NCBI GenBank assembly: GCA_050309605.1 | Contig: JBNRMN010000024.1 | Coordinates: 1-13,816, forward strand | Source of the DNA: Anaerohalosphaeraceae bacterium | GTDB taxonomy: Bacteria > Planctomycetota > Phycisphaerae > Sedimentisphaerales > Anaerohalosphaeraceae | Reading direction: 5' to 3' | DNA: 13,816 nucleotides | Shown: piece by piece, positions 1 through 13,816 of the stretch | How positions within the stretch are numbered: the stretch's first letter is position 1 | Layout of the letters: each line of letters opens with the position of its first letter | The notes under the pieces: generated by a model | Seen by the model: the letters and a program-made list of their open reading frames with translations, nothing else | Databases searched by the model: none | What the model was told of the DNA's origin: nothing | Translations under genes and position numbers: made by a program

Positions 1-1
1 C

Positions 2-94
2 ATCGTCTGGAACGATCTGACGGAACACTTAAAGAAACTGTCCAGTGGAACGCAAATTGTCAAAGAGCTTGGGCGACTACTGATCGCCGCATAA
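2..94 (+). CDS. 3' end of an unidentified protein (partial, runs in from the window edge)
   Basis: Frame 2 is open from the edge: IVWNDLTEHLKKLSSGTQIVKELGRLLIAA* (TAA 92-94), amphipathic-helix-like. Frame 1 is also open to 123, so the frame is uncertain. Does not resemble a LolC/E C-terminus. Confidence 0.4.
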   Translation: MVWNDLTEHLKKLSSGTQIVKELGRLLIAA

Positions 95-236
95 ATCTAT
101 GTTTAAAAAATCAGTCAACTTGAGATAATTACTAGCTAATTAAGTGAGGCTACAATATGCTAAACAATATTTCACCTCCGGAGTGCAATTGTATCCACTG
201 CCAGCAGATATTGAGCAAGAATAAGGATATGACACA

Positions 237-923
237 ATGACGGCGATATTGAGAGCCAGTCGGATTCAGAAGTCTTATCGGATGGGCAAAAGTACGCTTG
301 AGGTGTTGCGAGGCGTGGATTTGTCTGTTCGATCGGGCGAATTCCTCGTGATCATCGGGGCCTCCGGCAGCGGCAAAAGCACCCTGTTGCACATTTTGGG
401 GGCACTGGACAGGCCTGATTCCGGCACGGTGGAGTTCGATGGAATCCGCTTAAATACGCTCAGCGGGCGCAGACTCGACCGATTTCGGAACAAGACGGTG
501 GGTTTTGTGTTTCAGTTTTACCATCTTCTGAATGAACTGAATGTATTGGAAAATGCGTTGGTTCCCGCGATGGCCTCGGCCGGAACGCTGCGGTGGCTGG
601 CCGTTCGTAACCGCACGGTGCAACGGGCCGAACACCTGCTCGAACAGGTGGGTCTGAAGGAGCGGCTGCGTCACAAACCCTATGAGCTGTCCGGCGGCGA
701 ACGCCAGCGAGCCGCCTTGGCGCGTGCACTGATCAATCAGCCAAAAGTCCTTTTGGCTGACGAACCGACAGGAAATCTTGACTCTCAGACGGGTTCTGGT
801 ATCTTAGAGGTTCTAAACGCCCTGCATCGAAACGGTCAAACGATTGTTATGGTCACGCATGATGAGCGGATCGCGGCGTGTGCCCAGCGGGTAATCCGGC
901 TGTGCGATGGAAAAGTAGGGTAA
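237..923 (+). CDS. lolD: ABC transporter ATP-binding protein, LolD/MacB-type (probable lipoprotein-releasing system ATPase)
   Basis: Walker A GASGSGKS, GFVFQFYHLL Q-loop region, signature LSGGERQR, Walker B LLADEPTGNLD, H-loop VTHD. 228 aa, SD-like AAGGA upstream. Confidence 0.85.
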   Translation: MTAILRASRIQKSYRMGKSTLEVLRGVDLSVRSGEFLVIIGASGSGKSTLLHILGALDRPDSGTVEFDGIRLNTLSGRRLDRFRNKTVGFVFQFYHLLNELNVLENALVPAMASAGTLRWLAVRNRTVQRAEHLLEQVGLKERLRHKPYELSGGERQRAALARALINQPKVLLADEPTGNLDSQTGSGILEVLNALHRNGQTIVMVTHDERIAACAQRVIRLCDGKVG

Positions 924-959
924 AAAAAAGACAATTAAACACGATTACTGGAGAACAGG

Positions 960-1817
960 ATGGCCTTAAAGATATGGCTGGATCAGGGTCTGGTGGACGA
1001 AAAAGACGCCGTCGTGTCGGTGTTTGATCGCAGTTTGCTGTACGGTGACGGCGTGTTCGAAGGGATTCGCGTTTACAGCGGCAAAGTCTTCGAATTGGAG
1101 GCCCATCTGCGGCGTCTGTATGAATCGGCCGCCGTCATTCGGCTGCCCATACCGATGCCCCTTGAGGAGATGACCGAGGCGGTTGAGAAGACTGTCAAAG
1201 CCAATGCGGTCAAAGACGGCTATATCCGTCTGATTGTGACCCGCGGCGTCGGCGATCTGGGGCTGAATCCCTTTGTGTGCAAAGGCGGAAAGGTCATTAT
1301 CATTGCCGACAATATCCAGCTTTACCCCGAAGCATTTTACGAGACCGGAATGAAGGTGGTCAGCGCCTCGACGATTCGCAACCATCCGCTGGCGCTGCCG
1401 CCGCAGATAAAAAGTCTCAATTACCTGAATAACATCCTGGCCAAAATTGAGTCCGTCGATGCCGGCGTCGGCGAGGCGATTATGTATAATCATCTGGGGT
1501 ATGTGGCCGAGGCCACCGGCGATAATGTGTTCATCGTCAAAGACGGGACGGTTTATACGCCGCCGATACAGGCCGGGTCGCTGGACGGCATCACCCGCCG
1601 TGTCGTGATCCGGCTGGCCGAACAGGACGGCGTCTGTGTCATTGAAAAAAATCTGACGCGGTTTGACCTGTACTCGGCTGATGAGGTGTTTTTGACCGGT
1701 ACGGCAGCCGAGGTAATCGGCGTGGTGGAAATGGACGGACGTTCCATCGGCAGCGGAAAACCCGGCCCGATAACCAAACGGCTGCGGAATCTGTTCTTTG
1801 AGGCGGCCCATTCCTGA
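960..1817 (+). CDS. ilvE: Branched-chain amino acid aminotransferase (PLP fold type IV)
   Basis: YGDGVFEGIR, KSLNYLNN (PLP lysine), EATGDNVF, LDGITR, FLTGTAAEV motifs. GGAG SD upstream. Confidence 0.92.
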   Translation: MALKIWLDQGLVDEKDAVVSVFDRSLLYGDGVFEGIRVYSGKVFELEAHLRRLYESAAVIRLPIPMPLEEMTEAVEKTVKANAVKDGYIRLIVTRGVGDLGLNPFVCKGGKVIIIADNIQLYPEAFYETGMKVVSASTIRNHPLALPPQIKSLNYLNNILAKIESVDAGVGEAIMYNHLGYVAEATGDNVFIVKDGTVYTPPIQAGSLDGITRRVVIRLAEQDGVCVIEKNLTRFDLYSADEVFLTGTAAEVIGVVEMDGRSIGSGKPGPITKRLRNLFFEAAHS

Positions 1818-1831
1818 ATCGAGCCAGCGTG

Positions 1832-2821
1832 ATGACCACCGACCCCCATCCTGTGGATTTGCCGACCTTGTTCAGCCCGATTTCCGACGATTTATGTCGT
1901 GTGCGTGAGCGGATCGGCGATGTGCTGACCGGTGCGGTTTGGCCCGTTGGCGATTATCTGGCGCAGCTTGATTTAAGCGGGGGAAAAATGCTGCGTCCCG
2001 CCCTAACGCTGTTGAGCGGACAGGCCGTCGGCCCGCTGAAGGCGGATCACATCGAACTGGCTGCGATCGTCGAGATGATCCACTTGGCTTCTTTGCTGCA
2101 TGATGACGTCATTGATCAAGCCCGCACGCGCCGGGGGCAGACCAGCGCCAATGTGCTGTGGGGCAATACCCAGGCGGTGCTGCTGGGCGATTACGTCTTG
2201 AGCAGGGCCTTCGCAATGGCGGCGGCACTGAATCTGCCGAGTGCGGCTGAGGTCATGTGTCAGACCGCCGAGGCCATCTGCACCGGTGAAATCCGGCAAA
2301 ATCTCCGCAAAGGCGATCGGGACCTCAGCGAGTCCGAATACCTGACGATTATCGAGGGCAAAACCGCATCGCTGTTCGGTGTCTGCTGCTATCTGGGCGC
2401 GTTGGCCGGATGTGCCGAGCAGTCGGTTTGTCAAGCCGCGCGGCAATACGGATTGGGGTTGGGGATGGCCTTTCAGATCACTGATGACCTGCTTGATATT
2501 CTTGGCAGCTCGGCCCAGGAAGGCAAAACCCTCGGCACGGATTTGTTTCATGAAAAACTGACCCTGCCGGTGATTTATTGGCTCCAACAGGGCGACCAGC
2601 GGCAGCGGAAAGCCGAATTTTCGCGATTTGCCGAACGGTCGGATTCGGCTGCACTGGGCCGTGCCATTCGCCAAAGCGACGCCGCAGCCTATACCCTGAG
2701 CCGCGCAGAAGCCTATGTCCGAACCGCCAAAGACAGTCTCAATCCGTTGCCCGACTCCGCCTCAAAAGACGCTCTGCTGGGTCTTCTATCTTATGTGCTG
2801 GGCCGTGGAGAATCCGATTGA
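1832..2821 (+). CDS. Polyprenyl diphosphate synthase (IspB/HepT-like, long-chain trans-prenyltransferase)
   Basis: GGKMLRP, FARM LLHDDVID followed by RRG, KTASLF, SARM FQITDDLLD, GKTLGTDL. Start is ATG 1832 or GTG 1829. Confidence 0.9.
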   Translation: MTTDPHPVDLPTLFSPISDDLCRVRERIGDVLTGAVWPVGDYLAQLDLSGGKMLRPALTLLSGQAVGPLKADHIELAAIVEMIHLASLLHDDVIDQARTRRGQTSANVLWGNTQAVLLGDYVLSRAFAMAAALNLPSAAEVMCQTAEAICTGEIRQNLRKGDRDLSESEYLTIIEGKTASLFGVCCYLGALAGCAEQSVCQAARQYGLGLGMAFQITDDLLDILGSSAQEGKTLGTDLFHEKLTLPVIYWLQQGDQRQRKAEFSRFAERSDSAALGRAIRQSDAAAYTLSRAEAYVRTAKDSLNPLPDSASKDALLGLLSYVLGRGESD

Positions 2822-3141
2822 ATTCTTAATTTGACGGTCCGAAACAATTGGAACCTGTTGAATTGCTGCGGCAGACAACGGCGGCGGCGGCGGATAACCG
2901 TATCGAGCCGATTCCCTGTGGTCATCGCAAATGGCATACCAATCAGGATCGCCCTATCCTTGAAATTGCACGGCAAGAAGGTTTGGTCGTCACATCATGA
3001 ATTGACAGAGACGACCGGTCATTATTTGGTTTTACACAACTTTTACTTTCCACAATCGCGTTTGGGGGCTACAGTATATCAAGGGGCAGTCAGGTGCTGT
3101 CCGCCGCGAAACGGTTCATTTGAATTTTGGGAGACCAAGCT

Positions 3142-4554
3142 ATGAAAACAAGTCGTAATGTATCGGCATTAACGGGAGCATTGGTGTTGGCCGCCGGCGC
3201 TGTGGCCGAAACGCCCAAGGATATGGCTGTTACCATTTACAATGATAATTTCGGGGTGGTCAAAGAGCAGCGGGAGATGTCCTTTGAACGGGGGCTGAAC
3301 CGAATGCAGTTTACCGGTGTGGCCGAGCGGATTGATCCGACCAGCGTGAACTTTTTGTGTCTGACGGATCCGGACGCGGTGTCCATTTTGGAGCAGAACT
3401 ATGAGTATGACCTGGTTAATACCGACAGTCTGCTGAAGCGCTATATCGATCAGCCGGTCAGTCTGCTGGTCAAAGGCAGCGGCTCCAGCGGGGCCAGCCT
3501 GCTCAAGGGTGTACTGACCGCGGCCATCGGCGGCGATCTGATTGTGCAGGATGAATCGTCCAGCCAGTTGCATATTGTCAGTCGGGCCTCTGTCGAACGA
3601 ATTGAACTGGATAAGAAGCCCGAAGACCTGCTGACGCGGCCGACGCTCGTTTGGCTGGCGCATGCCGAACAATCCGGCAAGCATCTGTGTCAGGTGACTT
3701 ACACCACCGAGGCCATCGGCTGGAAGGCGGACTATTCGGCGGTCTTGAATGACAAAGAAGACACCCTGGATTTTTCCGGCTGGGTCACCATCAACAACCA
3801 GAGCGGGGCGGCCTATCCCGATGCGACTATCAAGCTGATTGCCGGTGATGTGCGCCGGGTTCAGCCGCCGGTACAGCCAAGACCGGAGTCCATTATGGTA
3901 AGATCGGCTATGGCGGCCGATGCGGCGGGGTTTGAGGAAAAGCCGTTTATGGAGTATCATCTTTATACGCTCGGCCGAAAATCCACGCTTCAAAACCGGC
4001 AGATCAAGCAGATTGAGCTGATCGAAACCGCCCGCGGCGTTCCGGTGGAAAAACAGCTTGTCTATACGACCTCCATCAATCAGTGGCAGGTGCGGCAAAG
4101 CGACAAAGTCCAGGTTAAAATCGAATTCGAAAACGAAGAGCAGCATGGCCTGGGCATTGCACTGCCCAAGGGGCGGGTGCGGGTGTTCAAGGCCGATCCG
4201 GCAGACGGCACGCTTGAGTTTGTCGGTGAAGACCAGATCGATCATACCGCCCGACGTGAAAGACTGTCGCTGTATATCGGCGACGCCTTCGACGTCGTGC
4301 CTGAACAAAAGATTACCGACCAGCGGCGCGGCGACCGATTTGTCACCTTCACCCGAAGCGTCGAAATCCGCAACCGCAAAGAGGAGCCGGTGTCCGTGTT
4401 CGTGGATGAAATCATTCCCCGCTACGTCAACTGGCGGATTGATAAAAGCTCACTGCCGTATGCAAAGAAAGACGCCTTTACCTGTCGTTTCAAGGTGGAT
4501 GTCAACGCCGACAGCACGACCACGCTGACCTTTACGATGACACAGACGTGGTGA
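3142..4554 (+). CDS. Secreted DUF4139 domain-containing protein
   Basis: ATG 3142 after GGAG SD. N-terminal signal peptide (MKTSRNVSALTGALVLAAGAVA). Family-typical VTIYN...VKEQR, IDPTSV, EQNYEYDL, W.ADY, YHLYTL, LPKGRVRVF, GED.IDHT motifs. Confidence 0.8.
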   Translation: MKTSRNVSALTGALVLAAGAVAETPKDMAVTIYNDNFGVVKEQREMSFERGLNRMQFTGVAERIDPTSVNFLCLTDPDAVSILEQNYEYDLVNTDSLLKRYIDQPVSLLVKGSGSSGASLLKGVLTAAIGGDLIVQDESSSQLHIVSRASVERIELDKKPEDLLTRPTLVWLAHAEQSGKHLCQVTYTTEAIGWKADYSAVLNDKEDTLDFSGWVTINNQSGAAYPDATIKLIAGDVRRVQPPVQPRPESIMVRSAMAADAAGFEEKPFMEYHLYTLGRKSTLQNRQIKQIELIETARGVPVEKQLVYTTSINQWQVRQSDKVQVKIEFENEEQHGLGIALPKGRVRVFKADPADGTLEFVGEDQIDHTARRERLSLYIGDAFDVVPEQKITDQRRGDRFVTFTRSVEIRNRKEEPVSVFVDEIIPRYVNWRIDKSSLPYAKKDAFTCRFKVDVNADSTTTLTFTMTQTW

Positions 4555-4604
4555 GTTAAAAATTAAGAATTGTGAATTAAGAATTGCGGCTGCTCAGGAG
4601 CCGT
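4554..4604 (+). repeat. Heptamer tandem repeat (AATTRNG-like) plus small hairpin directly after the stop codon
   Basis: agttaaa-aattaag-aattgtg-aattaag-aattgcg, then GCGGCT-N7-AGCCGT (4586-4604). Confidence 0.6.
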
Positions 4605-4629
4605 AAAATAATAATTTGACTGTTTTTTC

Positions 4630-4709
4630 ACCACGAAGGGCACGAAGAAACACGATGATTTTTGTATCGTAAAAAGGACTTCCTTCGTGATCTGCGTGTC
4701 CTTTGTGGT
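4630..4709. repeat. Imperfect inverted repeat built from ~9-bp CACGAAG units; possible bidirectional terminator between convergent genes
   Basis: Left arm ACCACGAAGGGCACGAAGAAACACGATG (4630-4657). Right arm reverse complement ACCACAAAGGACACGCAGATCACGAAG (4683-4709). 25-bp loop. Confidence 0.7.
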
Positions 4710-4751
4710 TTAATTATTCGTAAATCGGTGATTTTGAATTTGTGTCATCTC

Positions 4752-5714
4752 TCACCATTTTATGCGGATGCCTTTTTCGCGGGCCTCGGCGGCCCATTTT
4801 TTGATTTGGTCCAGCGCCAACTCCAGTTCTTTGCTGCTGTCCAGCAGGTTCTCGTACAGGCGCCCGTCGTTGAGGAACCGGGCGGCTGAGCCGGAGCCGG
4901 AATGGATTTTCGACAGGGTCAATCGAAATTCCCTGAGTGTATTGTCCAGACTGACGGCGACCGCTTCGATCTGGGCGGCGCCGACTTCTGAAAGACCGCG
5001 GATCGAGTCCAGTGTTTCGCTGAGTTCGGCCGCGGCGTCCTGAAGCCGTTCGGTTCCCGTATCGGCAAACAGCTCAAGCGATTTAAGGGTATCGACGGCC
5101 TGAGCAGTGGCGGCGGTGACATTTTCAAGGGATTTTTTAATATTGGCTCGATTCTCGGTATCGCCGATGATGGCGTTGGTGTTTTGCGACAGGGTGGTGA
5201 TCGAATCGACGAGGTTTTCGAGCTTCTTCTGAACTTCGGGCGGGAAAAACTCACTGGCGATGCCGACGCTGCCTTTTAGTTGAGAGCCGGGTTCCAGATG
5301 GCCGGCCACCTGCACGTCGGGATCCGTCTTCAGCTCGATGTAACTGCTGCCAAGTCCCCGGCGGATAATCATCGCCTCGGCGTGATCGGGGATATCCCCC
5401 AAAAATTTATTCTCGATCGCAATCTCGACGCGTACCTTGGGAATGGATCGGCCCTGTTGATCGATCTCCAGTTTCGGCGGTTTGACCGCGACGACCCGGC
5501 CGATTTGATAGCCGCAATACTGAACGGGCGTATCCTTTTGGATGCCCGGCGCTTCGGAAAAATCGACCCGGACAATAAACGAGCGAAACTGCGTGGCATA
5601 CAACGGCAGATTGCGAAACATGACCAGCATCCATATAAAGGCGGCAAACGCCAGCAGGACAAAGGCGCCGACCACCATATTGCGACGACGCTGCTGGGTT
5701 TGGTAATCTGTCAT
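4752..5714 (-). CDS. MlaD/MCE family protein (N-terminal TM anchor, MCE domain, helical C-terminus)
   Basis: RRNMVVGAFVLLAF TM segment; F.EAPGIQKDTPVQYCGYQIGRV MCE motif; GLGSSYIEL; C-terminal GSGSAARFLNDGRLYENL typical of MCE proteins. ATGA overlap with the upstream gene. Confidence 0.85.
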   Translation of the reverse strand: MTDYQTQQRRRNMVVGAFVLLAFAAFIWMLVMFRNLPLYATQFRSFIVRVDFSEAPGIQKDTPVQYCGYQIGRVVAVKPPKLEIDQQGRSIPKVRVEIAIENKFLGDIPDHAEAMIIRRGLGSSYIELKTDPDVQVAGHLEPGSQLKGSVGIASEFFPPEVQKKLENLVDSITTLSQNTNAIIGDTENRANIKKSLENVTAATAQAVDTLKSLELFADTGTERLQDAAAELSETLDSIRGLSEVGAAQIEAVAVSLDNTLREFRLTLSKIHSGSGSAARFLNDGRLYENLLDSSKELELALDQIKKWAAEAREKGIRIKW

Positions 5715-5980
5715 AGGTTCTTTCCTTTCAAAGGTTTATGCTGTTTCAAAAACAGTTCGCGTATGGCTCGCAGAGTGTATCCGCTGGCATTGAGCTGTTT
5801 GATCAGACGCAGCCGTTCAATCGCCTTGCGGTCAAAAAGCCGCCGTCCGCTCGGCGTGGTTTCGGTGGCCTCCAAAAGGCCCAGCATCAGGTAATACTGG
5901 ACACTCTGGCGCGACAACCCTGCCTGACGGGCTGCTTTGCCGATGGGCAGCAGAGCGGGTTGTTTCTCAGGTCGGCTCAA
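5711..5980 (-). CDS. Small MerR-family HTH DNA-binding protein (no effector domain)
   Basis: IGKAARQAGLSRQSVQYY..LGLL....TPSGRRLF......LRLIKQL..SGYTL.AIRE is a MerR winged HTH. Start uncertain: TTG 5980 gives a TTGA overlap with the rnpA stop; the ORF extends to GTG 6028. Confidence 0.8.
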   Translation of the reverse strand: MSRPEKQPALLPIGKAARQAGLSRQSVQYYLMLGLLEATETTPSGRRLFDRKAIERLRLIKQLNASGYTLRAIRELFLKQHKPLKGKNL

Positions 5981-6396
5981 TGGGTTTTGGGTTCTGTTTT
6001 CTGTTTTTGGCAACGAATCTGAAAACACGGTTTTTTTGACAGCACTTCTACCAGTTTTAAAAAATGCGATTCAAACGTGTGATATTTCATCACAGATGTT
6101 AACCAATTATTATTTATCGGCTTGCGGGCGGTCAAAATTAAAAGATAGTCGCGACCAGCGGGCAAATCGTGCTGATTCAGGCGAAACGCTTCGCGAGCCA
6201 GGCGTTTGAGGCGGTTGCGCACGACCGCCGTGCCGCATTTTCGGCTGACCGAAATCCCGAATCGCGGAAAATCAAGCCCGTTTTCGGCGGCGTAAAGTCG
6301 CATTATCTCATTACTCACAAAGCACTTATGAGATAAAATCGACTTGAAATCCCGCTCCAGCACGATTCGTTGTTTTTTTTTGAAATAAAAACGCAT
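5977..6396 (-). CDS. rnpA: Ribonuclease P protein component
   Basis: F.KKQRI....DF, PRFGISVSRKCGTAVVRNRLKRLAREAFR (RNR motif), LPAGRDY. ATG at 6396 preceded by GAGAAAGG SD-like sequence. The 48 upstream codons of the track ORF are probably not translated. Confidence 0.92.
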   Translation of the reverse strand: MRFYFKKKQRIVLERDFKSILSHKCFVSNEIMRLYAAENGLDFPRFGISVSRKCGTAVVRNRLKRLAREAFRLNQHDLPAGRDYLLILTARKPINNNWLTSVMKYHTFESHFLKLVEVLSKKPCFQIRCQKQKTEPKTH

Positions 6397-6435
6397 TTGC
6401 AAACAGAACCTTTCTCGGTCGGGTGGTTTGTCCTG

Positions 6436-6463
6436 ATTGTATCGTCCTGAACGCTCAAAGCAA
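6436..6463 (-). promoter_or_regulatory. Putative sigma70 promoter for the rnpA operon
   Basis: Minus strand TTGCTT (6463-6458) - 16 bp - TACAAT (6441-6436), about 40 bp upstream of the rnpA ATG. Confidence 0.55.
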
Positions 6464-6637
6464 ATTATTCCTCCGTCGGCCATAGCATAGGGCAGTTTTT
6501 GAGTCGAAATTGAACGAAAATGCCCTCGTATGGGTGACAATTTATTTATTGAACTATTTTTTCACCAATAAAGGGCGGTTCAGCGGCGTCTTAACTAATG
6601 ATATGGAATGAATTTGCAGATTTTTTATGGAAATGGG

Positions 6638-6666
6638 TTGATTTCCTTATTAAAAATGGGTAAAAT
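6638..6666 (+). promoter_or_regulatory. Putative sigma70 promoter driving the candidate sRNA
   Basis: TTGATT (6638-6643) - 17 bp - TAAAAT (6661-6666), with AT-rich upstream sequence. Confidence 0.6.
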
Positions 6667-6671
6667 TAATG

Positions 6672-6830
6672 AGAACAAACGCCGATATAGAACGTAACAA
6701 GAAGTGAAGCGAATAAGAGCGTAACGAAAAGCGAACTTTGAAATAAGAACATTACCCTCCTCCTCCTTCTAATGCCAGGTTCTATGCCTGGGAATGAGCA
6801 GCGGTTTCCTCCTTGCCGCTGCTTTTTTTT
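6672..6830 (+). ncRNA. Candidate small regulatory RNA with CCUCCU (anti-SD) motifs
   Basis: Bounded by a consensus-like promoter and a strong intrinsic terminator, with no credible ORF. A-rich 5' half, CCCTCCTCCTCCTT (6755-6768), hairpin 6775-6791, terminator loop TTCCTCCTT. No family recognised. Confidence 0.55.
6797..6830 (+). terminator. Rho-independent terminator
   Basis: AGCAGCGG-t-ttcctcctt-g-CCGCTGCT stem followed by a T run to 6830. Confidence 0.8.
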
Positions 6831-6980
6831 ATGCGCTTTTTTATTCAGGTTGTATTTTAACCATAATTCTCACAAATTAACCCCTTAGGGATGTGTTTGT
6901 CTCGGCGGGGTCATCCTTGCCGTGTTTACGGGCTAAAAAACCGTGTAATTCCAAATTTTCCATTTTTTTGAAATTTTTTC

Positions 6981-7009
6981 TTGCAATTGATGCGAAAGAT
7001 GGTTAAATT
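6981..7009 (+). promoter_or_regulatory. Putative sigma70 promoter of the sulfate assimilation operon
   Basis: TTGCAA (6981-6986) - 17 bp - TAAATT (7004-7009), 35 bp upstream of the rrf2 ATG. T-tracts upstream resemble an UP element. Confidence 0.6.
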
Positions 7010-7011
7010 TA

Positions 7012-7044
7012 TATCATAATTCCGATGATAACAATGAGGTTTTT
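7012..7044 (+). promoter_or_regulatory. Candidate Rrf2/CymR-type operator overlapping the transcription start and SD
   Basis: TATCAT-N7-ATGATA inverted repeat (7012-7030) containing ATAATTCCGAT, which resembles the Bacillus CymR core ATWATTCCTAT (recalled, not searched). Confidence 0.4.
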
Positions 7045-7485
7045 ATGGTTGTCGATTTGTCGAAGAAATCAAGATATGCTATCATGGCCTTGTTTGAGTT
7101 GGTTCTGGCCGGCTCGCAAAGACCGATCACGGCGCGTAAGCTGGCCGCTCGGCACAATTTACCTGTGCGTTTTCTTGAGATCATTCTCAATGAACTCAAG
7201 CAGGGCGGCTTTGTTTCGTCTATTCGCGGCAAGGCAGGCGGTTATGTGCTGGCGCGTCCGGCGAATGAAATTACGCTTGCCCAGGTTGTGTCGTATCTTG
7301 AGCATCGCTCGGCCTCGCTTTCTGAACCGTCAAGTGCCGAAGCGGACGGCCAGCGCGTCCTTGCCTTGCTCATACAAGAGGCCAATACGGCGGTCATACG
7401 CATTTTTGAGGCGTGTACACTCGACGAATTGGTCCGGCGGGAAGTTGAGAGCTGTTCTTCAGGCGAGCCGAATTACATTATATAA
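7045..7485 (+). CDS. Rrf2 family transcriptional regulator, CymR-like
   Basis: LSKKSRYAIMAL, P.RFLEIIL.ELK..GFV.SIRG..GGY.LARP..EITL Rrf2 HTH. Lacks the IscR/NsrR three-Cys cluster ligands. Ends NYII. GAGG SD. Confidence 0.9.
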   Translation: MVVDLSKKSRYAIMALFELVLAGSQRPITARKLAARHNLPVRFLEIILNELKQGGFVSSIRGKAGGYVLARPANEITLAQVVSYLEHRSASLSEPSSAEADGQRVLALLIQEANTAVIRIFEACTLDELVRREVESCSSGEPNYII

Positions 7486-7530
7486 TTTTTTTCAGCATAT
7501 ACACTACTAAAACAATAGGAATACAAGGAA

Positions 7531-7755
7531 ATGAGAGAGTCGCATATCAGAAGCATTGCCAAGGCCGTCAGCTATCGGGCGTTGGGGTCTGCGGTGACAT
7601 TTCTGGTGGCGTTGGCCGTCACACAGGAAATCAATACGGCGGTGGGAATTGGTGTACTGGATACCCTGATGAAGATCGGGGCGTTTTATGTTCACGAGCG
7701 GCTGTGGAATCGCCTGCATTTCGGAAAGACGCCGCCCCCGGATTATCAGATTTGA
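7531..7755 (+). CDS. DUF2061 small membrane protein
   Basis: ESHIRSIAKAVSYR...two hydrophobic segments...K...FYVHERLW..L.FG matches the DUF2061 pattern, often found in cys operons. AAGGA SD. Confidence 0.85.
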   Translation: MRESHIRSIAKAVSYRALGSAVTFLVALAVTQEINTAVGIGVLDTLMKIGAFYVHERLWNRLHFGKTPPPDYQI

Positions 7756-7762
7756 GGTGCGT

Positions 7763-8494
7763 ATGAATCGACACAGCGAAACACATCAGGTGATTGATCA
7801 ACTGAACCGGACGGCGCGCGAACGGGATGCCGTCGGCCGATTGCGGCTTATCGTCGAGCGGTTCGGCGATCAGGCGACAATGGCCACCAGTTTCGGGGCC
7901 GAGGATCAGGTGTTGACGGACATGCTGGCCGCATTGTCGGCTCAAATCGACATCTTTACCATCGATACCGGACGGCTGCCGCAAGAGACCTATGATGTCA
8001 TGGCACGGACGCAGGAACGGTATGGTCTTCACATTCGGCTGCTGTTTCCCGATTTTCAGGCGGTTGAACAGATGGTCAATCGGTATGGGCCGAATTTGTT
8101 TTATGATCGCATTGAACTTCGGAAACACTGTTGCACGGTCCGCAAGGTCGAACCCCTGCGGCGGGCACTGGCCGGTCGTCAGCTCTGGGTCTGCGGTCTG
8201 CGGCGTGAGCAGTCGGTTACACGACAAGCACTCGATTTTTTCCAGTGGGACGAACAGTTCGAACTGATCAAGGCCTGCCCGCTGGCCGACTGGACCGAGC
8301 AGCAGGTGTGGGACGCGATTCGCTGCGGCAATGTGCCTTTTAACCGCTTGCATGACGCCGGCTATCCCAGCATCGGCTGTGCGCCGTGTACCCGGGCGAT
8401 TGAGCCTGGACAGGACGTGCGGGCCGGTCGCTGGTGGTGGGAAGCGCCGGAGCACAAAGAATGCGGACTGCATTTGAAAAAAAGTAAAGATTAA
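7763..8494 (+). CDS. cysH: (Phospho)adenylyl-sulfate reductase, [4Fe-4S] APS-reductase type
   Basis: TSFGAED, IDTGRL, CC..RKVEPL, GLRREQS..R, GYPSIGCAPCT, R.GRWWWE, ECGLH. ATG 7763 after GAGGTG SD. Confidence 0.93.
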   Translation: MNRHSETHQVIDQLNRTARERDAVGRLRLIVERFGDQATMATSFGAEDQVLTDMLAALSAQIDIFTIDTGRLPQETYDVMARTQERYGLHIRLLFPDFQAVEQMVNRYGPNLFYDRIELRKHCCTVRKVEPLRRALAGRQLWVCGLRREQSVTRQALDFFQWDEQFELIKACPLADWTEQQVWDAIRCGNVPFNRLHDAGYPSIGCAPCTRAIEPGQDVRAGRWWWEAPEHKECGLHLKKSKD

Positions 8495-8557
8495 AAATCA
8501 AAGATCAAAACTGTGGATTCAGCTTTCGCTGATGCTGCATAATAAAGGAATCCAACA

Positions 8558-9451
8558 ATGACAAAGACGATGACGCAATTGGATGCGCTGGAAGCCCAGA
8601 GTGTGTATATCTTGCGGGAGGCGTATCGGTCGTTCAAGCAGCTTGTGATGCTTTGGTCTATCGGCAAGGACAGCACGGTTTTGCTCTGGCTGGCGCGCAA
8701 GGCGTTTTTCGGGCATGTGCCGATCCCGCTGATGCACATCGATACCGGATTTAAGATTCCGGAGATGATTCAGTATCGCGATACTTTTGCCCTGAAGTGG
8801 AAGCTGAATCTGATTGTCGGACAGGATGTTGAGGCCCTGGAGCACAAACACACCTTTCCCGACGGCACCCTGTCGCGTCTGGTCTGCTGCAAACGGCTCA
8901 AAAGCGAAACGCTCAAGCATACCCTCAGCGGCGAATGGCCGCGCTGGGTACTGAACCACAAGACCGGCACCTATGAACGGCAAGACGGCGGCGAGCCGTT
9001 TACCGGCGTGATCGTCGGCGCGCGGGCCGATGAAGAAGGCAGTCGCAGCAAAGAACGCTACTTTTCGCCGCGCGATACCCACAGCGAGTGGGATATCGCC
9101 GAGCAGCCGCCGGAGTTGTGGAATCAGTTCAACACCGACTTTGCCCCCGGTACGCACGTGCGGATTCATCCGCTGCTGGACTGGACGGAGTTGAATATCT
9201 GGGAATATATCGAACGCGAAAATATTCCGATTATCGACCTGTATTTTGACAAAGGCGACGGCAAACGCTACCGGTCGCTGGGGTGTGCGCCGTGTACGGG
9301 GCCGGTCGATTCGACGGCCAAAAACGTCCGCGAGGTTATCGAAGAGCTGCGCAGCGGAAAATTCAGCAACATCGCCGAACGCTCCGGCAGGCAGCAGGAC
9401 GCCGAAGACGGCGGCGGTCTGGAGACGCTGCGCCGCGAAGGTTATATGTAG
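8558..9451 (+). CDS. cysD: Sulfate adenylyltransferase subunit 2
   Basis: [22 protein letters not shown]-loop, [48 protein letters not shown]-terminal REGYM. Start 8558 or 8570. Confidence 0.93.
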
Positions 9452-9519
9452 GAATGTAAAATTAAATGTAAAAATACAGAGCCGCCTTTGGCGGAACTGC
9501 TTTCTACAGAGAGGTTGTT

Positions 9520-11355
9520 ATGTCCACTGTATTGGAAAGCCAAATGATAAAGAACGACACACAGGGGGCGCAGAAGATGAATATTGTCATCATCGGGCAT
9601 GTCGATCACGGCAAAAGCACGCTGATCGGACGGCTGCTGGCCGATACGCAATCGCTGCCGAAAGGCAAACTGGAGGCGATCAAGGCACAGTGCGCGTATC
9701 ACGCTCGTCCGTTTGAATATGCTTTTTTGCTGGATGCGCTCAAGGATGAGCAGTCGCAGGGGATTACCATTGATTCAGCCCGGTGTTTTTTCAAGTCGAA
9801 AAAACGCGAGTATATTCTGATCGATGCGCCGGGGCATATTGAGTTTTTGAAAAATATGATCAGCGGCGCTGCGCGGGCCGAGGCGGCGGTGCTGGTCATC
9901 GACGCCCATGAGGGCGTACAGGAGAACTCGCGACGGCACGGGTATCTGCTGGGAATGCTCGGCATTCGACAGGCCCTTGTCTGTGTCAATAAAATGGATT
10001 TGGCCGGTTATGACCGGCGTGTGTTTGAGCGCATCCGGTCGGAGTTTTCCGCTTTTCTGACGCAGACGGGGATTACAGCCCGGCATTTTATTCCCATCAG
10101 CGCTCGGGACGGCTTTCAGGTTGCCGCGGCAGGCGATGCGATGCCGTGGTACGATGGGCCAACCGTGCTGGAGGCGCTGGACGGTTTTGAAAAAGAACCG
10201 CCGCGGGTGGACCAACCCCTGCGGCTGCCGATCCAGGACATTTATAAGTTTACCGAGCAGGGCGACAACCGGCGGATTTTTGCCGGGCGCATCGAGACCG
10301 GGACGCTGCGTGTCGGCGATGCGGTGGTGTTCTATCCATCGGGTAAACGCTCAACAATTGCAAGCATCGAGGCGTTCAATGCCCCGCCGGCGCATGAGGC
10401 GGCGGCCGGCGAAGCCGTCGGCGTTACCCTGCGCGAGCAGATTTATGTCCAGCCCGGTGAATTGCTGGTACGCGCCGATGAGCCGCCGTCTGCGACGGCC
10501 CGTCAGCTTCGCGTCAATTTGTTCTGGATGGGGCGTGAGCCGATGATTTTTAACAAACGCTATCTGCTCAAGCTGGGCACGGCACGGGTGCCGGTCTGGC
10601 TGCGTCAGATTCGCACCGTGCTGGATGCGTCGGAACTGACTACCGAGCGGAACCGACGGCATATTCAACGGCACGATGTGGCCGAGTGTGTGCTGGAGAC
10701 GCTCAAACCCATCGCCTTTGATCCGACCGCCGAGATCGCCCAGACAGGGCGTTTTGTGCTGATCGATAATTATCATATCGCCGGCGGCGGGGTGGTGCTG
10801 CAAGCTGAAAACGCCGCCGCCGACCGATTGAGCGAACACGTGCAGCAGCGCGAAAAAAGCTGGCGGCGCAGCCGTATCACGCCGCTGATGCGGTCGTATC
10901 GCACCGGCCAGCGCTCGACGCTGGTGGTGATTGCCGGTCCGCCGCAAACAGGCAAGGCCGATCTGGCCCAGGCGCTGGAAGAAAAACTGTTTGCCGCTGG
11001 ACGACAGGTGTATTATCTGGGGCTGGACAACAGTTTAATGGGCATTGATGAAGACATCAGCCGCAGCTATCTGCGCGATGAATACTTGCGGCGGCTCGGC
11101 GAGGTGGCGCATTTGTTTACCGACGCGGGAATGATCCTGATCACGACCGTCAGCGATCTGGATAGCTATGAGCTGCAAGTGCTGCGCACGCTGAATCATC
11201 CGGGCGAAAATCTCATCATTGGCGTCGGAGCACACGGCCTGGCGGCATCGGATGTGGATTTGATGCTGGACGTGCCGCTCAATCCGTCCGAGGCGGCCGG
11301 GCAGGTGGCCAACCTGCTGACCGAACGCCATTATCTGCCGGAATATTACCTTTGA
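9520..11355 (+). CDS. cysN: Sulfate adenylyltransferase subunit 1 (GTPase) fused to a degenerate APS kinase-like domain (CysNC architecture)
   Basis: [27 protein letters not shown] GTPase motifs; EF-Tu-like domains [14 protein letters not shown]-terminal CysC-like domain with altered motifs. GAGG SD. Confidence 0.9.
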
Positions 11356-11402
11356 AATTGATTATTGATTATTGGTACTCAGTGATTGAGGATGAGCAAT
11401 AG

Positions 11403-12686
11403 ATGTTTAAGCCATTGATTCCATACGGACCTGTCAGGCTGCTGGGGACGTATCCGCAGCGGCAGGAAGGACTTTTTATGCAGCGTATTCCTTTCCTGGG
11501 TGGACGGATCACGCCGAGACAGCTTCGGCGGGTTGTTGAACTTGCCGAGGAGTTTACCGGCGAAACGCCGCTTCATATCACGACGCGGCAGGATATTGAA
11601 CTGCACAATATTGCCGAGACGAATGTGGCCGAGGTGCAGGCGGCGCTGGCCGAGATCGGGATTTCGACATACGGTGCGTGCGGTGATTTTGTGCGCAACA
11701 TCACGGTGTGTCCGTGCTGCGGGTTGGATCCGGCGGCGGTGGAGATGACGCCGCTGGCCGAACAAGTGCGGGACGCGGTGTTGTCGGCGGCCGGGGCGCT
11801 GGACCTGCCGCGCAAGTTCAAAATCAGCTTTACCGGCTGCGGCGGCACGGGGGCGCGGCCATATCTGCAGGACTTGGGTTTTGTGGCCCGATCGCCGGAG
11901 TCGATTCGGGTCATTGGCGCCGGTTCGCTGGGGCCGCGGCCGCAGCCGGGAATTGTCTTGTACGATTCGATTCGGCCTGGGGAGGCGGTCCCGCTGGTCT
12001 TTGCGGCGCTGGAGGTCTTTGCCGAACACGGCGACCGAGAGAACCGCCGCACGGCCCGATTGCGGCACGTTCGACAGCGGATGGGCGATGAGACCTTCAG
12101 AGTGCTTCTGGATGGCGCCTTTCAAAGACACAAAAATGCGGCGTCGCACGCGCCGGTCAGGCTTTCGTTGGGACAGTCGGGCTTTGACCACCGGTTGACG
12201 CTGCAAACCCTCGGCGGCGATATATCCTGTAAGCAGGCGCAGGACATAGCGAATTTGGCCGATGGTCAAGCAATTCAGATACGCATCAATCTGTGGCATG
12301 GTATCGATCTGTACAGTCGTGTGCCGTTTTCTCTGCCGCCGTCACTGCATCCGCTGACCCATCGACCCCGAATTGTTGCTTGTCCGGGTAACAGCACCTG
12401 CACACGGGGGCTGGCCAACTGCCGAGCGGCAGCCGAAGCGATGGCCGAGGCCCTGGCCCAGAGTAAAAAAAACGATGTGACCGTCGGCATCTCCGGTTGT
12501 CCGAACAACTGTGCCCTCAGTGTCGTGTGCGATATCGGATTGGTCGGGCGGGTCAAGACGATGGACGGCGTTCGACAAGAGGCCTTTGATATCTATACCG
12601 GCGGCAACGGCGGCGATGAGCGGCTGGCTCAGCGCAAAGACACCGTCGCGGCGGCGGATTTGAAAAACTATTTTGCGCGGTCGTAA
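11403..12686 (+). CDS. Siroheme/[4Fe-4S] sulfite (nitrite/sulfite) reductase hemoprotein, probably ferredoxin-dependent assimilatory sulfite reductase
   Basis: FMQRIP..GG, HITTRQDIELH, GD.VRNI, LPRKFKI, DLGF, GDRENR..ARLRH, and ligands CPGNSTC (Cx5C) and SGCPNNC (Cx3C). Last gene of the cys operon. Confidence 0.85.
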   Translation: MFKPLIPYGPVRLLGTYPQRQEGLFMQRIPFLGGRITPRQLRRVVELAEEFTGETPLHITTRQDIELHNIAETNVAEVQAALAEIGISTYGACGDFVRNITVCPCCGLDPAAVEMTPLAEQVRDAVLSAAGALDLPRKFKISFTGCGGTGARPYLQDLGFVARSPESIRVIGAGSLGPRPQPGIVLYDSIRPGEAVPLVFAALEVFAEHGDRENRRTARLRHVRQRMGDETFRVLLDGAFQRHKNAASHAPVRLSLGQSGFDHRLTLQTLGGDISCKQAQDIANLADGQAIQIRINLWHGIDLYSRVPFSLPPSLHPLTHRPRIVACPGNSTCTRGLANCRAAAEAMAEALAQSKKNDVTVGISGCPNNCALSVVCDIGLVGRVKTMDGVRQEAFDIYTGGNGGDERLAQRKDTVAAADLKNYFARS

Positions 12687-12708
12687 GTGGAAAAACAGCC
12701 AAATTGGT

Positions 12709-12728
12709 AACCGTTCACCGGTTTTTTT
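12709..12728 (+). terminator. Weak possible terminator of the cys operon
   Basis: AACCG-ttcac-CGGTT followed by a T run; the stem is short. Confidence 0.3.
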
Positions 12729-12811
12729 CAGTTGGACCCATTCGTTTATGAAAGTCAATGACCGTCCGCCCCTTCGGGGCGACAACAACGCGACACCAGC
12801 GCGCACAACAC

Positions 12812-13102
12812 CGCGGCGCAACATTGCGGCACAACAGCGCGGCGGCGCGAGCCGCCCGATACGGGGATGCGGATAAATGGGACGTTTTGCAAGACGCCAC
12901 AGGATCCGGCGGCTTGCGCGGCTCGGCTGTTGTTACGTGTCGCAATCCGGCCGCTTGCGCGGCTCGGCTATTGTACGATGACGCGGCGCAACATCGCGGA
13001 CAACAGCGCGGCGGCGCGAGCCGCCCGATACGGGGATGCGGATAAATGGGATGTTTTGCAAGACGCCACAGGATCCGGCGGCTTGCGCGGCTCGGCTGTT
13101 GT
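12812..13102. repeat. Direct repeat (~121 bp x2, 12812-12933 and 12982-13102), each holding an inverted pair of ~30-bp REP-like units, plus one extra unit at 12945-12974
   Basis: ATCCGGCGGCTTGCGCGGCTCGGCTGTTGT at 12904 and 13073, variant at 12945. Imperfect reverse complements ACAACAGCGCGGCGGCGCGAGCCGCCCGAT at 12831 and 13000. Confidence 0.85.
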
Positions 13103-13105
13103 AAA

Positions 13106-13283
13106 CTCTCCCCCTGTCAAGGGGGAGTACCGCGAAGCGGGGAGGGGGGTAAAAAACAAGAAAGATTCCATGGCCGCAGTGTGGCCAAATGGGAAACAGG
13201 TAACAACTACGAACTGACATGGGGGGACGCAACCACCCCTGTCCTGCTGGCGCAGGACGTCCCCTCCTTGAAAAGGAGGGGAG
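13106..13283. repeat. Two oppositely oriented G/C-tract double-hairpin elements (REP-like)
   Basis: CTCCCCCT-gtca-AGGGGGAG-ta-CCGC-gaa-GCGG-ggaggggggt (13108-13150) and accacccct-GTCCTGC-tggc-GCAGGAC-gt-CCCCTCCTT-gaa-AAGGAGGGG (13232-13281). Confidence 0.65.
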
Positions 13284-13285
13284 CT

Positions 13286-13321
13286 AAAAAAAACGGGTCT
13301 GGCGCGCGTTGCGCCAGACCC
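13286..13321 (-). terminator. Rho-independent terminator of groEL
   Basis: GGGTCTGGCGC-N5-GCGCCAGACCC 11-bp stem (13295-13321) with A8 at 13286-13293 (U-tract on the minus strand), 37 bp after the groEL stop. Confidence 0.8.
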
Positions 13322-13358
13322 ATAGGGTACTGGATTGACTGACAGGGGCTGCTGCGGC

Positions 13359-13816
13359 TTAGTACATGCCGCCCATTCCACCCATACCGCCCATGCCACC
13401 CATGCCGCCCATACCGCCGCCCGGAGGCATCGCGGGGGCTTCTTTCTTTTCGGGGATCTCGCTGACGACCGCATCGGTGGTCAGCAGCAGCGAGGCGATG
13501 GAGGCGCCGTTCTGCAGGGCGGTGCGTTCGACCTTGGTCGGCACGATGACGCCGAACTTGATCATATCGCCGTATTCCTTGCGGAGGGCGTCGTAGCCGT
13601 AGTTCTTTTCTTTGGACTCCATAACCTTCTGCGCGACAATCGAGCCGTCCAGGCCGCCGTTGACGGCGATCTGCTTGATCGGGGCGACGACCGCACGCCG
13701 GACGATATCCACGCCGACTTGTTCGTCGCCAACGCATTTGATCTTGTCCAGAGCGCCGGGGCACTTAAGCGACGAAACGCCGCCGCCGGGCAGGATGCCC
13801 TCTTCGACCGCCGCAC
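13359..13816 (-). CDS. groEL: Chaperonin GroEL, C-terminal part (partial, runs off the window)
   Basis: AAVEEGILPGGG, P.KQIA.N.G, GVIVPTKVERTALQNGASIASLLLTT, GGM repeat tail ending GGMY. Confidence 0.96.
   Translation of the reverse strand, partial: AAVEEGILPGGGVSSLKCPGALDKIKCVGDEQVGVDIVRRAVVAPIKQIAVNGGLDGSIVAQKVMESKEKNYGYDALRKEYGDMIKFGVIVPTKVERTALQNGASIASLLLTTDAVVSEIPEKKEAPAMPPGGGMGGMGGMGGMGGMGGMY

Follow-up and report, generated by a model that had tools for sequence, protein, structure and literature searches.

A conserved candidate small RNA gene with anti-Shine-Dalgarno-like motifs in Phycisphaerae

The intergenic region between the divergent genes rnpA and rrf2 of an Anaerohalosphaeraceae bacterium (GCA_050309605.1, contig JBNRMN010000024.1, positions 1-13,816; this whole stretch of 13,816 nt is called the window below) contains an element at 6638-6830 on the plus strand whose transcribed part (6673-6830) we regard with high confidence as a real, conserved sRNA gene. 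Going by its sequence, the gene is very probably self-contained, with a promoter and an intrinsic terminator of its own and a predicted transcript, and it represents what the alignments indicate is a family conserved in Phycisphaerae (Planctomycetota) and absent from Rfam 15. The analysis establishes the anatomy of the gene, its conservation, its two hairpins, its coding strand and the exposure of CCUCC; pairing with Shine-Dalgarno (SD) regions and repression by the sRNA are what we infer.

Anatomy of the sRNA locus

The coordinates of the locus are collected in Table 1. In the window, rrf2 follows the element on the same strand at a distance of 215 nt, and the promoter, repeats, CU-rich run, hairpin and terminator that an earlier note had listed are all in place. 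The element stands above chance because it is conserved in relatives and not because of its single-sequence signals: the promoter match alone is at chance level (2 sites seen versus 2.0 expected from shuffles), and the folding energy of the complete transcript lies within the usual range of shuffles (z = -1.35). No tRNA or tmRNA was found by a dedicated scan.

Table 1. Features of the sRNA locus and its neighboring genes in the window
Feature	Position	Strand	Details
rnpA	ORF 5977-6540	-	Pfam Ribonuclease_P
Sigma70-like promoter	6638-6666	+	TTGATT 6638-6643, 17-nt spacer, TAAAAT 6661-6666; 9/12 matches
Antisense 28-aa hydrophobic ORF, SD GGAGGAGGAGGG	6666-6752	-	Judged not a gene
Predicted sRNA transcript, about 158 nt	6673-6830	+	Start inferred from -10 box; end at U-run
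Variable A-rich 5' arm	6673-6748	+	49% A (38/78)
CU-rich block ACAUUACCCUCCUCCUCCUUCUAAUG, proposed seed	6749-6774	+	First 18 nt invariant in 9/9 copies (alignment columns 12-28)
Middle hairpin	6775-6791	+	CCAGG 6775-6779 / CCUGG 6787-6791, loop UUCUAUG; 5 bp, -9.9 kcal/mol
Intrinsic terminator	6797-6830	+	9-bp stem 6797-6805/6815-6823, U8 6823-6830; -16.7 kcal/mol
rrf2	7045-7485	+	Followed by cysH, cysD, cysNC and the sulfite reductase gene (sir)

The CU-rich block holds the run CCCUCCUCCUCC at 6755-6766, followed by UUC, and with it an (CCU)n seed of 11-12 nt; CCTCCTCC is found twice, overlapping, against 0.27 occurrences expected. A second CCUCC (6808-6812) sits in the 9-nt terminator loop UUCCUCCUU (6806-6814), a loop longer than the 8-nt limit of the initial scan, which therefore left the terminator unlisted. 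The T-run that follows the terminator hairpin is kept in all 9 copies compared here (the window and eight relatives).

The two CU-rich sites differ in how open they are predicted to be. In full-length folds of single sequences, the CCUCC of the terminator loop has an unpaired probability of 0.99-1.00 in 9/9 copies, and the long seed is partly open, with a mean unpaired probability of 0.29-0.82; in the consensus fold (RNAalifold) the CU-rich block is unpaired. The description of the CCUCC motifs as exposed thus stands for the terminator loop in every copy and for the block in the consensus, and has to be softened for the long seed, which is partly paired in single folds. A 5-bp stem, CAUUA/UAAUG, might enclose the seed in a loop of 15 nt; of its pairs, four never vary, and the fifth is disrupted in 3 of the 8 distinct sequences.

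Upstream of the seed, the 5' arm of the window contains short repeats: CGTAAC twice (6693, 6720), AAGCGAA twice (6707, 6729), AATAAG twice (6712, 6742) and AGAAC three times (6672, 6689, 6746). In most copies, part of the CU-rich seed is predicted to be paired with a purine-rich piece close to the 5' terminus (GGGGG, GGGGAUGAG, AGGGA, AGGAG, AGAGUGAG and AAGAAGUGAAG, covering 6697-6720 of the window and its equivalents in L002, L004, L005, L014 and the L009 group), more weakly in L010, where the piece is AAGAG. This predicted pairing may reflect self-masking or may be a folding artifact.

On the other side of the locus, the ribosomal protein L34 gene rpmH, which is normally upstream of rnpA, is absent from that place, with no basic ORF of ~45 aa on the minus strand in 6400-7050. 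The long TTG-started ORF probably makes rnpA too long, since its Pfam match starts at residue 53.

Conservation among relatives

For comparison, 28 loci (L001 onward) were retrieved by their neighboring Rrf2 protein from a species-representative genome collection; all were thus chosen via rrf2, and the linkage of the sRNA to that gene cannot be weighed from them. Searched with the intergenic region (blastn), 8/28 loci carry the element: L002 (82% identity over 204 nt), L014 (93% over 97 nt), L005 and L004 (88.6% over 105 nt), and L009, L010, L012 and L015 (79% over 91 nt). In these eight relatives, identity over the 3' half (6749-6830) amounts to 79-93%, while their Rrf2 proteins are only 40-56% identical to that of the window. 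As delimited by the alignment, the conserved part of the sRNA is a 3' domain of ~95 nt made up of the CU-rich stretch, the small hairpin and the terminator hairpin. Within it, ACAUUACCCUCCUCCUCC and the CCUCC of the terminator loop never vary among the nine aligned copies, and CUAA, GCCAGGUUCU, most of the terminator stem and the loop sequence CCUCCUU are invariant as well.

The carrier loci are labeled Phycisphaerae, Sedimentisphaerales and Anaerohalosphaeraceae, with two labeled Pirellulales yet nearly identical to an Anaerohalosphaeraceae copy. The number of independent lineages is small: L009, L010, L012 and L015 (the L009 group) hardly differ from one another, and the covariance model has an effective sequence number of 1.37. 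The closest relative of the window, L001 (a Phycisphaerales MAG; Rrf2 89% identical, DNA 91.7% identical over 5.7 kb), has a contig that begins 96 nt before rrf2, short of the element; L003 is cut likewise, and the contig of L008 stops ~17 nt into the RNA, after the homologous promoter. The 17 other loci were without a copy by cmsearch in all sources, repeated with filters off for 8/28 loci (L001, L003, L006, L007, L008, L011, L013 and L017). Across the window and the 28 loci, cmsearch returned no copies beyond the 9 from which the model was built, which match by construction, and blastn gave no match in plasmids or phages. In L015, a run of ten G (L015:7271-7300) lies inside rrf2 where the protein match ends, at residue 105; either a frameshift or faulty assembly could explain it.

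A comparable promoter occupies the homologous place in 9/9 copies and in the truncated L008 copy, with -35 and -10 boxes on the CCUCC strand at a spacing of 15-18 nt in every copy. The L005 promoter (TTGCAT-N17-TATATT, ~8/12) was picked by eye, the top choice of the script being another site. A conserved GAAC follows the promoter after 5-8 nt, replaced by AGGAGC in the L009 group. Inspection of the sRNA promoters by eye turned up nothing convincing as a common Rrf2 operator. Promoter, CCUCC motifs and terminator, which the earlier note expected to be conserved in relatives if the gene were real, are all kept in 9/9 copies, with promoter and T-run on the CCUCC strand in each, and its idea of an independent sRNA unit is supported.

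The 5' arm behaves otherwise. Upstream of the ~95-nt core, alignable sequence is found only between the window and L002, and even there the likeness is confined to the first ~20 nt and the last ~12 nt. The arm is ~75 nt long in the window and L002, ~60 nt in L014, L005 and L004, and ~12 nt in the L009 group, and the distance from promoter to core changes with it (~80 nt, ~63 nt and 18 nt, respectively). Because both length and sequence vary across the copies, the A-rich arm is a lineage-specific appendage; the repeat-bearing arm pointed out earlier is present in the window and is not a conserved part of the RNA (about 12-75 nt).

In two relatives, a second CU-rich unit lies just upstream of the sRNA promoter (L014:4422-4512 and L008:69-157, both on the minus strand), with the sequence CAUCCUCCUCGUUACCUCCUU in L014 and AUACCUCCUCCUU in L008, and in both a terminator hairpin comes next, GCGGUUCGGAAYGGUCCGGACCGC, flanked by an A-run upstream and a U-run downstream. 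It is distinct from the sRNA and adjoins it, with weak cmsearch scores (23.9 bits in L014, 14.2 bits in L008). Degenerate versions are present in L005 and L004, and the short ORFs opposite the unit are not conserved. The unit could represent either a sibling sRNA in tandem or the terminator region of mgtC.

Coding strand and alternative readings of the locus

The two hairpins are supported by the alignment: 99.1% of cells are paired, compared to 30-55% when the partners are slid by 1-3 columns, and RNAalifold gives the same two hairpins independently. Two pairs of the terminator stem show compensatory changes (A-U to G-C, and U.G, G-C and U-A), a covariation score matched by 0/500 shuffles. 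The stem of the middle hairpin is invariant and so offers no covariation, with a loop of 6-8 nt across the copies; the compensatory changes that the earlier note had named as a check are therefore found in the terminator and not in the middle hairpin. G.U pairs at columns 72/82, 64/90 and 63/91 would become C.A mismatches if read on the other strand, and these pairs, the T-run and the promoters identify the CCUCC strand as the functional one.

This bears directly on a feature that the earlier note overlooked. Read as its reverse complement, the CCUCC run gives exactly a perfect SD and a start codon, GGAGGAGGAGGG-UA-AUG, and the plus-strand RNA is fully antisense to the 28-aa ORF that begins there, its SD included. 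In type I toxin-antitoxin systems of the Ibs/Sib type, an sRNA is fully antisense to a small hydrophobic toxin ORF, and the locus could be read in the same way, with the minus strand encoding a small hydrophobic protein, possibly a type I toxin, and the plus-strand RNA acting as an Ibs/Sib-like antitoxin. The likeness to Sib/Ibs loci is real in so far as a short hydrophobic ORF of the window, SD included, is covered exactly by an antisense sRNA of ~150 nt. Moreover, GGAGGAGGAGGG stands 2 nt before the ATG, SD and ATG are invariant in 9/9 copies when the alignment is reverse complemented, L002 has an ORF of 27 aa that is 56% identical (tblastn), and the fold of the minus-strand RNA is somewhat more stable than those of shuffles (z = -2.2). 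However, in the nine copies the ORF runs to 28, 27, 4, 2, 15, 5, 5, 20 and 5 codons, and its site is taken up by the sRNA promoter in the L009 group. Where the window and L002 differ, the changes are concentrated in the central part of the ORF; they include a 3-nt indel and follow no third-position pattern (by eye). On a T-rich strand, chance alone is expected to leave a frame open, and the T-run and G.U pairs suit the plus strand only. The toxin gene that defines Sib/Ibs loci is thus missing here, the ORF not being conserved; with lengths of 2-28 codons across the copies, we rejected the toxin-antitoxin or small-protein reading and give a functional minus strand very little credence.

The neighborhood of the plus-strand sRNA gene raises two further readings. 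In L004, L005, L008 and the L009 group the gene order is rrf2 (+), divergent mgtC (-) and sRNA (-); L014 has an oxidoreductase gene inserted between mgtC and the sRNA, and dnaA converges on the sRNA in L005 and L014. In L002, rrf2 and the sRNA diverge, 150 nt apart, and in the window mgtC is missing, rnpA is the neighbor and the sRNA points toward rrf2. From the window one might take the element for a cis-acting leader or attenuator of rrf2-cysH-cysD-cysNC-sir, with a start at 6673 and sulfur-dependent readthrough at 6797-6830, given its place before rrf2 on the same strand and its distance of 0.15-2.7 kb from rrf2 in all 8 relatives that carry it. Against this, the element is on the strand of rrf2 only in the window and on the opposite strand in 8/8 relatives, with mgtC between the two in 7. 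In addition, rrf2 has a conserved promoter region of its own, as the earlier note had proposed, and similarity to L001 begins at 6965; neither an anti-terminator alternative nor a riboswitch family match (Rfam) was seen, and the sole plus-strand ORFs there are not conserved features. The sRNA keeps its neighborhood and not its orientation to rrf2, and a leader function is therefore ruled out: a riboswitch or attenuator of the cys operon was rejected because the orientation varies, and we consider the cis-acting reading highly improbable. The possible link to sulfur metabolism raised earlier shrinks to one of position, given the opposite strand in 8/8 relatives, usually behind mgtC. The alternative of a 3'-UTR-derived or terminator-associated part of upstream mgtC, with no independent gene, would suit L004, L005, L008, L009, L010, L012 and L015, where the element follows mgtC on the same strand, and L014, with another gene inserted between them. 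Each copy, however, has its own -35 and -10 boxes, a separate terminator hairpin lies between mgtC and the sRNA promoter in L014 and L008, and the window and L002 have no adjoining mgtC, making an origin as part of mgtC improbable. An independent sRNA gene on the plus strand remains the reading that we adopt.

Two other features of the window are recorded in their own right. Between the rrf2 promoter and its SD lies the palindrome TATCAT-N7-ATGATA (7012-7030), and a related ATCAnTAATyCGAcTG occurs upstream of rrf2 in L004, L005, L008 and L014; the palindrome is a candidate Rrf2 operator. Downstream of the DUF4139 gene, a stretch of ~145 nt (4596-4740) is 72-73% similar, in both orientations, to L001:5852-5981, which lies after the L001 sulfite reductase gene, and may be a dispersed repeat.

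Relation to known RNAs and proposed function

A search of the window with 4227 families of Rfam 15 gave 0 matches at gathering score, in line with the earlier statement that no described family was recognized, and at E<=10 (6200-7100) only chance-level matches appeared. The sub-threshold matches on the plus strand are all to sRNAs with CU-rich loops: LhrC (RF00616) scored best (22.8 versus 110 bits, E 0.74), followed by Xoo2 (20.3 versus 45 bits), ar14 (RF02344; 18.4 versus 58.8 bits) and CcsR1 (RF02791; 12.7 versus 65.3 bits). Full-text search of an open-access library found no description of a planctomycete CU-rich sRNA of this kind. Our best reading, by analogy, is that the sRNA represents a new family that would work on paper like cuckoo/CcsR, LhrC and RsaE while being a member of none, the gathering scores of RF02344, RF02791 and RF00616 not being reached.

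LhrC of Listeria pairs with SD regions through CU-rich sites located in a hairpin loop, in an unpaired segment and in the loop of the terminator, and this layout of CU sites is the closest to that of the sRNA; similarity between the two is nevertheless limited to the terminator and CU runs, and LhrC belongs to another phylum. The cuckoo RNAs of Alphaproteobacteria (ar14/SmrC14, CcsR1-4 [RSs0680a-d] and NfeR1) are described in PMC4615179 as 2-4 adjacent hairpins with CCUCCUCCC in each loop, a motif interpreted there as pairing with ribosome-binding sites. Set beside that description, CCUCCUCCC is nearly identical to CCCUCCUCCUCC of the window as an anti-SD-like motif, and it occurs more than once per molecule in both; the clustering of the CcsR RNAs also has a counterpart in some Phycisphaerae loci with a tandem second CU-rich unit. 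In contrast to the hairpins so described, the long motif here lies outside the supported hairpins, the middle hairpin is motif-free and CCUCC is found only in the terminator loop. The phylum differs too, and the Rfam scores fall far below threshold. We rejected membership of the cuckoo family since, measured against the hairpin loops of that description, only one of the two hairpins here carries CCUCC, and the weak 5-bp stem that might enclose the long motif is broken in 3/8 distinct sequences. Unpaired C-rich motifs that pair with G-rich SD regions are also reported for RsaE/RoxS of Firmicutes and RNAIII-type RNAs in PMC4615179 and PMC6158497, a principle that the sRNA would share; their motifs are CCCC/UCCC, compared to (CCU)n here, no Rfam match was obtained at E<=10, and sequence, structure and taxon are unrelated.

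On balance, we lean toward a role in which the anti-SD-like seeds pair in trans with ribosome-binding sites and repress translation. The two CCUCC-type sequences would copy the anti-SD sequence of 16S rRNA and pair with target mRNAs at purine-rich ribosome-binding sites of the GGAGG type, and this pairing would block 30S binding and thereby repress translation. None of the 13 gene starts in the window has GGAGG upstream, several having GAGG, AGGA or GGAG; with 4-nt SD cores only, the genes of the window suggest that a (CCU)n seed of 11-12 nt would favor the few messages with long purine-rich sites. A duplex-energy scan of the window and related loci found no target common between genomes, in a search that is noisy because G-rich DNA scores through G.U pairs.

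Several features of the region next to groEL came up alongside that scan. By far the best predicted seed duplex in the window and the related loci (-31.8 kcal/mol, the next best elsewhere being -24.0) is with GCGGGGAGGGGGGUAA at 13137-13152 on the plus strand, in the gap of 670 nt that separates the sulfite reductase gene from groEL; on the minus strand the site reads UUACCCCCCUCCCC, resembling the sRNA seed. It has no Rfam match and was not seen beside groEL in L009. The same gap contains two direct repeats of 103 nt (12831-12933 and 13000-13102; 99% identical, 169 nt apart), with no Pfam or Rfam match, and three copies of a 31-nt sub-repeat. A perfect palindrome, CCCCTCCTT-GAAA-AGGAGGGG (13261-13281), lies beside the groEL terminator (13293-13328) and pairs CCUCC and GGAGG sequences in one hairpin. 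The C-terminal part of groEL (13359-13814, minus strand) ends in GGM repeats, its DNA being 82% identical to that of L009 and L015.

The main rival to base pairing with messages is a decoy. An invariant stretch of 18 nt is longer than pairing with an SD requires and might indicate a protein or the ribosome as partner, in which case the CU block and the CCUCC loop would mimic the 3' tail of 16S rRNA and bind a factor that recognizes the tail, or a CU-binding protein, making the molecule a protein-titrating or ribosome-directed RNA. The extreme invariance favors this rival: the 18 nt and the adjoining hairpin do not vary across lineages whose proteins are 40-56% identical, and the motif occurs twice in exposed positions, as in sponge RNAs. 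On the other hand, the likeness to the 16S tail is confined to CCUCCUU, and a single-stranded CU stretch, a CU loop and a U-tail terminator make up the known architecture of base-pairing sRNAs. We therefore judge the decoy unlikely, though worth keeping in view, and prefer pairing in trans with ribosome-binding sites. A bolder proposal, which we offer only as a speculation of low probability, is that this would be the first conserved family of trans-acting sRNAs in Phycisphaerae to act as a free copy of the anti-SD tail, competing for rare mRNAs with long GGAGG sites or titrating a tail-binding factor.

The candidate is well defined, with a promoter, a terminator, an invariant seed of 18 nt and covarying stem pairs, in Sedimentisphaerales-type genomes. 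Table 1 of a 2022 review lists 8 annotated sRNAs for the entire PVC group (PMC9029176). With the regulatory RNAs of Planctomycetota almost unknown, the family would be an entry point to post-transcriptional control in Phycisphaerae. It would add another, apparently independent, case of the anti-SD type, and the alignment could serve for its addition to RNA catalogues. Were the RNA indeed a free copy of the anti-SD tail, it would provide a class-wide, selective layer of translational control, with tandem CU-rich siblings in some genomes and, possibly, self-masking by the purine-rich 5' segment.
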